64,000 bases of DNA from a virus (taxonomy: Duplodnaviria; Caudoviricetes), in IMG/VR virus record IMGVR_UViG_3300032247_000581, positions 31,921 to 95,920 of that record, one strand, 5' to 3'. This document shows, in pieces, positions 58,313-62,105 of this stretch. The notes under the pieces were generated by a model. That model was not told where the DNA came from. It ran no database searches and saw nothing but the letters and a program-made list of their open reading frames with translations. Both the position numbers and the translations under genes were made by a program. Position 1 is the first letter of the stretch. The number at the start of each line of letters is the position of its first letter.

Positions 58313-60365
58313 TTAAGCTTTACCCTCACGCTTGGCTTTTAGGGCTGCAGCAATTTTAGCTTGACGTGCAGCAGCGGCTTCTTTATTTGCTTCTTTATCT
58401 ACACGAGGCTTATTATAAATAGAACCCGCATTTTTTGCAGTTTTCATAGAGGGAGCATCTGTTTTAATAACTGGTTTTGGTTTAGGAAGTTTAATCCTAT
58501 CTTTTACTGGAACTACATACCCTGCGCTTTCTTCATTGGTCATATAGCGCCCTGAAAGTTTAGGCTCTGTTTCCATGCCTTTTGCAACAGGCATAACAAT
58601 ATGGTCTGTTCTAGCATCAATATGGGCGTTTACAGGGGTACCTTCATTAGGGCGTTGTCTAGATACTAATCCTTCGTGAATAGGGTTTGAAGGGTCATAT
58701 TTTACAATCCTTAAACTGCTAGGGCCACGGTCTTCTGGTGCCTCAGACATTATTTATCCTTATTAGCGTCTTTAGAAAAATGTTGTGACATCTCATCCAT
58801 AGCTTCTGGAGTTAGATAATCCCATCCTTCAGGGCGTTCTGAATCAGATGCTTCTGGAAACTGTGACTCAGTTGGCTTCATTTTGTGTCATCAAATTTCT
58901 GTACTGGAAGGGTGCCAGCTTTACGAGCATTGCTTGTCTTACCTAATGCAACATACTCTTTTTCACGAGCATCTGCAGAATGCCACATATCAATTTTACC
59001 CATTGCGTTGTACTTTACACGACCATTAGCGTCATCATATTGGTCTTCAGTACCCTCATTAAATACATTGCGCTCATCTTGTGGGCGAACTTTTACATGG
59101 CTAATAGGAAACTGTGTTGATTTTGGGTTCATTAGAGCCTCTTATTTGCTTCTTCGTACTCAGCTTCGTGAGTATCTGGTTCTGGATGCGCTAATTCATA
59201 CGCATATTTTTGTTGCATTGCGTCTTGCTTAGTCCATTCAATATCTGGTTGGCGATATGGGTCGCGTGCCCTGTCTTTTGGATTAGCCATTTAATTTGTA
59301 CTCATTTTTATCGTTAGCCTGTTTAACATGTCCGCCACCAACATTGTAAACTTCATTTCGGTCTTTTCTAAAGTCACCATCGTGGCGTGTGTTAATAGAA
59401 GCGTTGTCATGTGGTCGTGCTTCTTTAACAGCGTTTTCAGGAAATGATTGACCAGAATTCATTTGAAAGTTGTCTGCCCAAGCAGAACCCTCTCGTTTCC
59501 AGCCTAAAGCAGCCCCCATCTTTTCAAGGCTTCCCGTTGAACGACGAGTATCTTTTGCACGGTCTTTAGCCATGATTAACCTGCTGGATTTACTTTAGAA
59601 GACTCTTCTGAGTTGATGAAACCATAGTTCATGTATGGGTGTAGTCCAGCACGGTTCTTAACGACATCTTGGTCACCAGAACCTGGAATTACTGTTGTAT
59701 TTGGACGGCGCTTACGATACTTACCGTCAGTTGCACCCTCATTAAGGGATGCGTTCTGTGAACGTGAATTATTTACTGTCATTATGCCATTTTACCCTTC
59801 AGTAATTTAGACTGCTTGCGACGAGTGCAATTCGGGCAAGTATCTGTATGTAGTGATTGTACTGGGTTTAACGTTAATCCACATTCAATACAAGGCTTAG
59901 AACCATTGTAATAGGTGGTTTTTAAATCTTTTTGGGTCTGTAACTTAACATCCATAGCTCCAGCCATGCCATCGCCAGTTGAATCTGTAAGTAGACCTGG
60001 GTCGTTGCTCATACTGAGCCTCCTAAGGTGTTACGGCTAGTACTTTCTTGAGTATTAGGGGTATTGCTAAAGTCAGACTCTACACGCTGTTGAGCGCGAC
60101 CAGGCAAATCAATTATGTCTTCAATACTTATCTCAGTCTGGGTGTATCCGTATCGCTCTGGAAATAACTTAACTTGAGGTAGTGGGGGGCGCACATATTC
60201 TTGTAGTTCTGCCCCTGTCATCATATTAGCCGCTAGTGATTGGCTAAGTAGACGTTCTTGATTAGAGGCAAAAGGACCGATATATGCTTGCGGTGGGTAA
60301 GCAGCCTCAGGTGGTGCTTGCCACGGTTTGCGGGAGTAAACACCGTCTGCCATTCTTCCTGACAT
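58313..60365 (-). other. Operon of eight small hydrophilic proteins (58313-58750, 58750-58881, 58878-59132, 59132-59290, 59283-59573, 59576-59782, 59782-60012, 60009-60365)
   Basis: Coupled ORFs; two under 60 aa were read manually. Confidence 0.6.
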
Positions 60366-60906
60366 TTATTTCCAATTCGGTGATAGGGAGCTAAGACGCT
60401 TAGCTCTGTTTAAATTAACACCCATAGGTGCATCACTCTTTGCGGCAGGACCTGCCTTACCATCATTAGGTAAGTGCGGAGCTGGTGCTAGATGCTGTGC
60501 ATCTGCATTGCGTTTTGACATATATACATTGCCTTCTTTAGCAGCATTCATTTGACGACGAATACCGCGAGTATTGTCTAATTCATCAGGATAGTAATAC
60601 CCTGCAGCATCAATGCGCTCACCTTTATGTACACCGCGTTGGTAACCACGTTGTGTAATGCGAACTTTAAGTGAATCTAAAACATTTTCTGATGTGGAAC
60701 CTGGACGACCACGGTCATCTCTACGAGTTCTAATTGTTCCGAGGTAGCCGTCAGGGATACTCCGCAGAAGGCTGACGACCTACGCCTAAGCGTAGGAAGT
60801 CGAGTTCACTCCTGGCGACTGAAACGCCGCCTCCACCATAATTGGTGTTAGTTCCATACATCCCAGCAGCGCCGAGATTTTGAACGTTTTGATGTGGTCC
60901 TGGCAT
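60366..60906 (-). CDS. Hypothetical protein of about 179 aa requiring a +1 frameshift at CCC-TGA-C (60756-60750)
   Basis: ATG at 60906 lies 6 nt after TATAAT; 51 codons to TGA; the +1 frame is open for 128 codons with no ATG/GTG/TTG in the first 67. Confidence 0.7.
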
Positions 60907-60920
60907 AAACCCATTATAGG

Positions 60921-62105
60921 TTAGCGAAAGCCACCTAGCACCACTAACTCTCTACGAGCGTCAAAACCTTCTCCTACTACTAAGGAAACAATTCCTGGGT
61001 GGGATTCAAGGCCCGATTTATCTCTAAACCAACTAGAACCATTGTCCATAGCAGGGTTCTGTATGAATAAACGGCGACCTACACTCTGTACGTCGTAATG
61101 GTGCAAATGACCAACATTTAATATATCTGCATTAGCTACTGAACACTTACCCATTACTTGCCCTGACCACCAAGAAACCATATTAGTTTTTTGATGACCA
61201 TGAGCCATACCGTATAGGGTGCCACTTAAATTAACACACAAAGTACTATCATCTAAAGCTGGGTAACGAAACTCAACTCTATCTTTAAGAAATTCATTTT
61301 CCATACAAGCATCTTCTACAGCGCGAACAATCTCAATCTGCCATGAGTCTTCAGGGCGAGAAACTAAAAACCGTTGAACTTCATCATGGTTACCTGGAAC
61401 TACTGGAACGATAATCTTTGGTGCATACTGCGCCATTGATTTAATCTGAGCCATAAGAACACGGCGACCAACCTGAACTTGTTGGGCTACCCCTATATCG
61501 TGGCGTCCCATTACTTTACCTTTTTGACTTGTCATTCCTTCAATGCAGTCTCCAATTTGAGGAAGTGCAATTTGGCCAATTTTATACTTAGATTGTAAGT
61601 ATTTATGATGTTCTACTGCCTCATTGAATGTACGAAGTACCCTTTCAACAATTGCTGGGGTATCGTCTTTTCCATATTGTGTATCACCAATACTATAAAC
61701 AGCTGTTAAATCACCTGCGTGGTCATTTACTGGTCCTGTTGGTCTCCAATTAATAATGTCTTCAATTAATTTTTCTGCATCATAATCTTTTCCTGAAGAT
61801 GAAATTAATGGAACAACAGAAATTTTAAATGATTCTAACCATTCTCCGTCGTATTTTTGCCAACGTGAGCGTTTATGCGATGTAACTGCCCATTCTGATG
61901 GGTCTAAATTTGCTTCTCTAATAATTTCTTCTGCACCTGGGGTATTGCCATCAGGTCGTGGTGTAGAAACAATAAAACCACCATCATTGCCAATTTCAGA
62001 ACGAGGACGCCAACCATCTGGGATGTTACGAATTAAATCGTCTGAGCCTTCTTTACCTGCGTTAATAAACTCTTTAAACTCTTCGTTTATGGACATTGGC
62101 ACCAA
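60921..62105 (-). CDS. Calcineurin-like metallophosphoesterase (Mre11-like)
   Basis: GDTQYG, GDCIEG, PGNHDE, AHGH and GHLHH. Confidence 0.85.
   Translation of the reverse strand: MVPMSINEEFKEFINAGKEGSDDLIRNIPDGWRPRSEIGNDGGFIVSTPRPDGNTPGAEEIIREANLDPSEWAVTSHKRSRWQKYDGEWLESFKISVVPLISSSGKDYDAEKLIEDIINWRPTGPVNDHAGDLTAVYSIGDTQYGKDDTPAIVERVLRTFNEAVEHHKYLQSKYKIGQIALPQIGDCIEGMTSQKGKVMGRHDIGVAQQVQVGRRVLMAQIKSMAQYAPKIIVPVVPGNHDEVQRFLVSRPEDSWQIEIVRAVEDACMENEFLKDRVEFRYPALDDSTLCVNLSGTLYGMAHGHQKTNMVSWWSGQVMGKCSVANADILNVGHLHHYDVQSVGRRLFIQNPAMDNGSSWFRDKSGLESHPGIVSLVVGEGFDARRELVVLGGFR

Follow-up and report, generated by a model that had tools for sequence, protein, structure and literature searches.

In +1 frameshifting of the prfB type, the Shine-Dalgarno (SD) element is optimally spaced when about 3 nt separate it from the shift codon downstream. 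The site of release factor 2 (RF2) itself combines a UGA stop followed by C with a 5' SD (PMC5009743), and CCC_UGA serves as a +1 site, or is prone to such shifting, as documented for the tsh genes of Listeria phages and for E. coli pheL, where the level is 15% (PMC5009743). Another kind of recoding is associated with MobA and gene 60, which form a mobile cassette with a replaced segment that is 67-81% identical (bioRxiv 10.1101/2022.08.31.505936); some phages retain the recoding site after the endonuclease has been lost (bioRxiv 10.1101/2022.08.31.505936). The cassette goes back to Bonocora et al. 2011 (PNAS), as cited in PMC5009743. The free-standing homing endonucleases of the T-even phages (mobE, segG and similar) have also been described (PMC2790892, PMC2988022). 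The locus analysed here has features of all of these systems, and is likely to be an immunity scar orphaned from its HNH homing cassette and rescued by +1 frameshifting of the prfB kind.

The window, i.e. the whole 64-kb stretch of DNA that was analysed, belongs to a viral record of 95,920 bp that is complete and has direct repeats at its termini (G+C content of the phage genome, 42.4%). The target gene lies on the minus strand, and its site was read directly as ...CCT TCT GCG GAG TAT CCC TGA C GGC TAC CTC.... The first 51 codons (MPGPHQ...SAEYP; zero frame, minus strand, 60754..60906, or 60906..60751 with the stop) aligned to residues 1-51 of uninterrupted 179-aa homologs. The +1 frame continued for 128 codons (DGYLGTIRTRRDD...SPNWK) up to a TAA (minus strand, 60366..60752; TAA at 60368-60366), with its first ATG, GTG or TTG only at codon 67. 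Between both lies the recoding site, GCG GAG TAT CCC TGA C (60750..60765, minus strand), which has one base extra with respect to the uninterrupted TAT CCN GAY GG, and which comprises, on the same strand, GGAG (60763-60760), TAT as the E-site codon (60759-60757), CCC as the shift codon (60756-60754), the stop TGA (60753-60751) and a C (60750). A sequence-only reading of the window had already reported the 51-codon ORF starting at ATG 60906, 6 nt away from a TATAAT, the 128-codon +1 frame free of starts over its first 67 codons, and the prfB-like GGAG/UAU/CCC/UGAC layout with GGAG 3 nt before CCC; direct reading confirmed these three observations. A +1 step at CCC-U yields a 179-aa protein and restores AEYPDGYLGTIR, and the motif AEYP/DGYLGTIR is regained solely by a +1 shift at CCC/U/GAC. 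The pattern GGAG-N3-CCCTGA was found once in the 64-kb window (vs. 0.04 expected), whereas CCCTGAC alone was unremarkable (7 vs. 5.2 expected). A search for tRNA genes in the phage genome found none, and hence no frameshift-suppressor tRNA.

The extra base is real DNA. The nearest relatives have TAT CC(A/T) GA(T/C) GG, and the window is therefore one base longer. Logan contigs spanned the site without gaps in the probable source run (depth 18) and in a second sample (depth 9.5), and a third bridging contig came from a run belonging to a different study (depth 3.6). The possibility raised earlier that CCC was a homopolymer error did not hold, as contigs of two studies both carry CCC. The uninterrupted form was also present, in other strains of those Logan runs. 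In runs X2, X5 and X7 (window 60300-61100), related strains with both forms of the gene shared lake samples, and contigs ended exactly at the site (60755), as expected of an assembly-graph bubble at that point.

When IMG/VR was scanned for the pattern, 17 metagenomes yielded 20 more homologous viral contigs with the site, and a metagenome scan by the site pattern, in which most matches were due to chance, added at least about 6 homologous carriers. In each of the 20 contigs the +1 frame was open for 121-129 codons, up to the normal C-terminus of the family; the first ATG, GTG or TTG of this frame appeared 19-67 codons past the site, at a place that varied among carriers. The 321 complete loci that were compared (215 unique coding sequences: 17 carriers and 198 uninterrupted) all had the gene, with no other stop or indel anywhere in it; this, together with the recurrence of the site, excludes random decay and sequencing error. 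The sequence-only reading had named the continuity of all close homologs among the observations that would refute it: the closest relative is indeed continuous (L005, 99% identical in amino acids, with CC and not CCC), but the 20 other contigs share the site. One carrier, L366 (JGI26470J50227_1001295), had TAC instead of TAT before CCC, the sole variant of the E-site codon observed. In another, L405 (Ga0164297_10010577), only 12 codons separated the first in-frame ATG from the site; translation may begin at a different codon there, or the 5' part of the gene may be rearranged.

The fused 179-aa reading was matched by more than 1500 protein clusters from freshwater metagenomes, with 100% coverage and up to 92% identity. 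The members of this family were almost all uninterrupted (176-181 aa; more than 90% without interruption), and the junction falls inside AEYPDGYLGTIR, their most conserved stretch and invariant core. No Pfam or PHROG family was matched by the target protein, an ESM Atlas search gave no usable match, a profile search of the PDB gave chance-level matches only, and the DNA of the region did not match cultured phages. AlphaFold2, supplied with 93 uninterrupted natural homologs, produced a mostly unstructured model of low confidence (mean pLDDT 52.8, pTM 0.19); as far as the model indicates, the product, a conserved protein of ~179 aa, is probably largely disordered. The sole relatives in cultured phages were gp48 of Streptomyces phage BRock (L465:3896-4417) and the proteins of four other Streptomyces phages, all of them annotated as hypothetical, with 37-41% identity across about half of the target protein. 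These homologs support an actinobacterial host range for the family, whose freshwater phages of ~95-100 kb probably have actinobacterial hosts.

The genes neighbouring the target encode an exonuclease (phrog_284), a SpoVS-like protein and a Zn-ribbon regulator-like protein. These are DNA-metabolism genes and no late region was identifiable among them, so that the location in a late region proposed earlier is unsupported. The exonuclease gene (394 aa; 60921..62105, minus strand) is the upstream neighbour of the target gene. Most of the other frameshift carriers have an HNH gene between the two, and the window has none. The TATAAT (60913..60918, minus strand), 6 nt before ATG 60906, is a possible -10 element of a leaderless transcript. 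Leaderless transcripts are common in Actinobacteria, and they are suggested in this family by a TANNNT that precedes the ATG by 6-7 nt in 121 of the 215 relatives, and by the lack of a clear SD in many. In the HNH-bearing cassettes the ATG overlaps the stop of the HNH gene, an arrangement which suggests translational coupling instead.

The codons of the site differed in their usage between carriers and uninterrupted alleles. GCG for Ala, TAT for Tyr and GAC for Asp were present in all 17 unique carriers (vs. 25, 145 and 55 of the 198 uninterrupted alleles, respectively), GAG for Glu in 14/17 (vs. 68/198) and GGC for Gly in 15/17 (vs. 51/198). Codons -8 to -4 and +3 to +8, on the other hand, varied equally in carriers and uninterrupted alleles. 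Among the 20 uninterrupted alleles that are one base away from the site (CCT GAC or CCC GAC), only 2 had GCG. The G of GCG completes GGAG, and the third base of this Ala codon was G in 17/17 carriers; the SD-like element was not absolute, with GGAA replacing GGAG in 3/17. The fixed positions were those on which shifting of the prfB kind depends: an SD-like element at a distance of 3 nt from the shift codon, a UAU E-site codon and UGA-C. All carriers probably derive from one cassette, and the shared site is partly identity by descent; what argues for constraint is the contrast with the variable synonymous sites in the flanks and nothing else (p of about 0.005, with small numbers). The 16-nt site was held at synonymous positions while the HNH gene of the cassette diverged to 56% identity. 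Within the carriers, the zero-frame N-terminal part showed strong purifying selection (dN/dS 0.01-0.07). The dN/dS of the +1 part (0.04-0.2) is not creditable to the carriers and does not prove translation in them, because the downstream parts have been repeatedly exchanged with uninterrupted alleles.

The interrupted state was scattered at the tips of the whole-gene DNA tree, where 17 sequences called for 14 changes of state. That the site had evolved convergently, in about 14 lineages, was considered and dropped, since analysis of the upstream flank showed that it was inherited along with a cassette and that recombination had taken place at the site. For carriers L090 and L093, dS was 0 upstream and 0.52 downstream of the site, and for L087 and L089, 0.06 upstream vs. 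0.61 downstream. In the upstream 450 nt, the carriers grouped with one another across deep subfamilies, both by nearest neighbour and in trees.

Immediately upstream, an additional ORF (131-143 aa) overlapped the start of the target gene by 1 or 8 nt and matched the HNH endonuclease phrog_2255 (E 1e-29 to 1e-32), with nothing above threshold in Pfam. The motifs EFDH, N(IGE) and C.NCH (EFDH...N...CxNCH) were invariant and two CxxC pairs (Zn-finger) were conserved; judged by its residues, the predicted protein has the catalytic His...Asn...His motif and the CxxC zinc ligands of an HNH (His-Me finger) endonuclease. The extra base was linked to this gene across lineages: the HNH gene was intact directly upstream in 14 of the 19 carriers with enough flank (distinct contigs; 56-100% amino acid identity), and an orthologous HNH was found in only 1 (L006) of about 195 uninterrupted alleles, with about 190 counted as free of it. 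The other 5 carriers (the window, L028, L079, L086 and L094) had no HNH.

Two near-isogenic pairs defined the boundaries of the unit. L095, a carrier with the HNH gene, and L337, uninterrupted and without it, were 96-100% identical over 500 nt upstream and 1,250 nt downstream; they differed in an HNH insertion of ~450 nt, in the first ~150 nt of the gene (72-84% identical) and in the extra base, and identity returned to 98-100% right past it. L092 and L192 differed by the same unit, with a tract about 50 nt longer. Over both pairs the insertion amounted to ~400-450 nt and the first ~150 nt of the gene were 70-84% identical. The mobile unit, with clean boundaries, consists of the HNH gene, the diverged ~150 nt and the extra base.

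Two other arrangements were observed in the same intergenic slot. The uninterrupted allele L006 (L006:1100-2037; IMGVR_UViG_3300022591_000004) had an HNH gene upstream, with 86% amino acid identity to that of L097, and its site read GCG GAG TAT CCT GAA GGC, with no extra base and with the nearly invariant Asp52 changed to Glu (D52E). As this allele is HNH-bearing yet uninterrupted, the insertion is not the sole way to coexist with the enzyme; L006 suggests a second route to coexistence with the endonuclease or resistance to it, or alternatively a revertant. L007 and L016, also uninterrupted, had a second, distant HNH (about 40% amino acid identity over 89 residues) in the 700 nt upstream of the gene; it may encode a separate homing endonuclease that has its own target.

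The allele of the window corresponds to part of this unit. Window and L005 were about 98-99% identical across 2.7 kb, and 30 of their 82 differences fell within positions +50 to +150 of the gene and ended with the extra base; the next 107 nt were free of differences. This tract of ~100 nt (+50 to +150 from the ATG; 60756..60856, minus strand), 30% diverged from L005 and ending at the extra base, was nearest to the same segment of the other frameshift carriers and of L006. An HNH copy was sought in the window genome and none was found. The presence of the last 100 nt of the tract and the insertion, without the HNH gene, identifies the allele of the window as a partial conversion tract and a putative orphan resistant allele, which would have been gained by partial co-conversion or left behind after loss of the endonuclease.

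The following sequence of events would account for these observations. By analogy with T4 MobA/gene 60, the HNH enzyme would cut uninterrupted alleles at or near the most conserved stretch, the cassette would be copied into the cut allele during repair, and carriers would be shielded from re-cutting by the changes at the site (the insertion and nearby substitutions). We infer both the cleavage at the conserved stretch and the immunity conferred by the insertion, because of this analogy and of the tract ending at the insertion. The insertion would be tolerated since GGAG-UAU-CCC-UGA-C would be a shifty stop at which the +1 shift is efficient: while the P site is occupied by CCC and the A site by UGA-C, which RF2 decodes slowly, the peptidyl-tRNAPro would re-pair to CCU, aided by anti-SD pairing 3 nt upstream and by the weak UAU E-site codon. 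Translation would resume as ...AEYP-DGYLG..., giving the normal protein (junction ...SAEYPDGYLGTIR), and terminating ribosomes would release a 51-aa fragment. From the make-up of the site, +1 frameshifting at CCC-UGA-C is predicted to be enough to supply the protein. The re-pairing of CCC to CCU had been put forward in the sequence-only reading, and gained comparative support from the restoration of the motif and from the fixed synonymous positions.

Other explanations were weighed against this one. The same reading had gone on to propose that late functions are gated on the level of release factor, and a dedicated regulatory frameshift, tuning the level or timing of the protein to host RF2 as in prfB, with the HNH linkage as incidental, would indeed fit the layout, which is that of the RF2 autoregulatory site (SD, 3-nt UAU spacer, shift codon and UGA-C; PMC5009743). 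A shift at UGA also necessarily competes with RF2, making the output RF2-dependent. Such a role is nevertheless unlikely, as more than 90% of the family, including the 99% identical relative, make the protein without a shift, and the interrupted state is scattered at the tips and travels with a selfish cassette, with no conserved clade relying on it. Inheritance of the interruption with the adjacent HNH cassette, its scatter on the tree and the uninterrupted majority speak for a selfish-element origin rather than a regulatory circuit, and leave the regulatory purpose assigned earlier unsupported. It is also improbable that the interrupted allele is null, i.e. collateral damage of homing in a gene that is dispensable or complemented in mixed infections. 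The downstream frame might be intact only because the allele is young or refreshed by recombination (the exchange with uninterrupted alleles weakens the evidence from intactness), and the poor fold prediction of the target protein points the same way; against it, the gene was kept in all 321 loci without any other kind of lesion, the synonymous positions of the site stayed fixed through the divergence of the HNH gene, the zero-frame part of the carriers is under the purifying selection described above, and the allele is carried by a complete phage genome with terminal repeats (depth 18).

The two remaining explanations do without a frameshift. That the C-terminal part is produced separately, by re-initiation or from an internal start in a split gene, would agree with the GGAG upstream of the stop, as in many coupled gene junctions, but has very little probability: the +1 frame lacks ATG, GTG and TTG for 19-67 codons past the site, and the most conserved residues of the family (DGYLGTIRSRRDD), located directly after it, would be lost. 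An extra C arising from homopolymer sequencing or assembly error, to which the CC of L005 lends some appearance, is effectively refuted by the same base in independent contigs of two studies and in 20 contigs from 17 metagenomes, always accompanied by co-varying substitutions and usually by the adjacent HNH gene, which is beyond what an error produces.

The preferred reading, a homing scar rescued by frameshifting, has a wider bearing. For a long time T4 gene 60 has been almost the only case of a recoding element that protects a genome from its own homing endonuclease, and the locus described here would be a second and mechanistically different form, in which a single extra base is read by a +1 shift. 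If this is true, a small HNH gene brings with it a 1-nt target insertion pre-packaged in a prfB-like context, and the recipients still make the protein. It seems on balance that the immunity scars left by homing endonucleases can give rise to programmed +1 frameshift sites, and that recoding as endonuclease immunity is a general, recurrent strategy. Some frameshift sites would thereby be given an origin that needs no regulatory benefit, and, for annotators, recurrent "frameshifted pseudogenes" beside small HNH genes in phages may be functional. The natural near-isogenic pairs, the orphan resistant alleles and one revertant-like allele make the idea directly testable. A literature search, incomplete in coverage and thus leaving novelty unproven, retrieved no account of a homing-endonuclease cassette that makes use of a +1 frameshift site.

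With respect to the known systems, the site shares with prfB the SD-like element, the 3-nt UAU spacer, the shift codon and a UGA followed by C, as well as a short zero-frame ORF with the functional part in the +1 frame. As in prfB-type shifting, the P-site codon can re-pair: CCC plus U gives CCU, also a proline codon. It differs from prfB in the shift itself (CCC to CCU vs. CUU to UUU), in a product which is not a release factor, so that there is no feedback loop, and in being linked to a mobile element and confined to a small minority of its family. The shift codon and stop, CCC_UGA, are the same as in the tsh genes of the Listeria phages PSA, A118 and A500, also phage genes, and in E. coli pheL (PMC5009743); in tsh and pheL, however, the shift occurs near the 3' end and generates an extended second product, whereas here it would be required for the sole full-length product and was born of an insertion. 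The likeness to mobE and segG lies in an intergenic endonuclease beside a conserved target, co-conversion of flanking markers and trans-homing recipients without the gene, but immunity in those systems comes from base substitutions only, with no frame-breaking insertion in need of recoding.

The closest parallel is MobA/gene 60. In both cases the HNH gene is located just 5' of the target coding sequence and is followed by a replaced, diverged segment (67-81% identical there, 70-84% here), the mobile unit ends at the recoding element, at a highly conserved residue, and the distribution is patchy and recent-looking, with the recoding site sometimes kept without the endonuclease. The recoding elements are different: gene 60 has a 50-nt gap which is hopped by means of take-off and landing codons and a nascent-peptide signal, and the present case has a 1-nt interruption with a predicted +1 shift at CCC-UGA and an SD-like stimulator. 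Neither a gap nor a matched take-off/landing pair was found when the window site was examined for bypassing. The endonuclease is also smaller than MobA (131-143 aa vs. about 270), is intergenic and splits no gene, and the target gene and host group are others, with cleavage and immunity proposed here by analogy. The present case would work as the MobA/gene 60 family does, yet, as it lacks the bypass that defines that type, it is not a member of the family but a new variant, its small, putative +1-frameshift counterpart.
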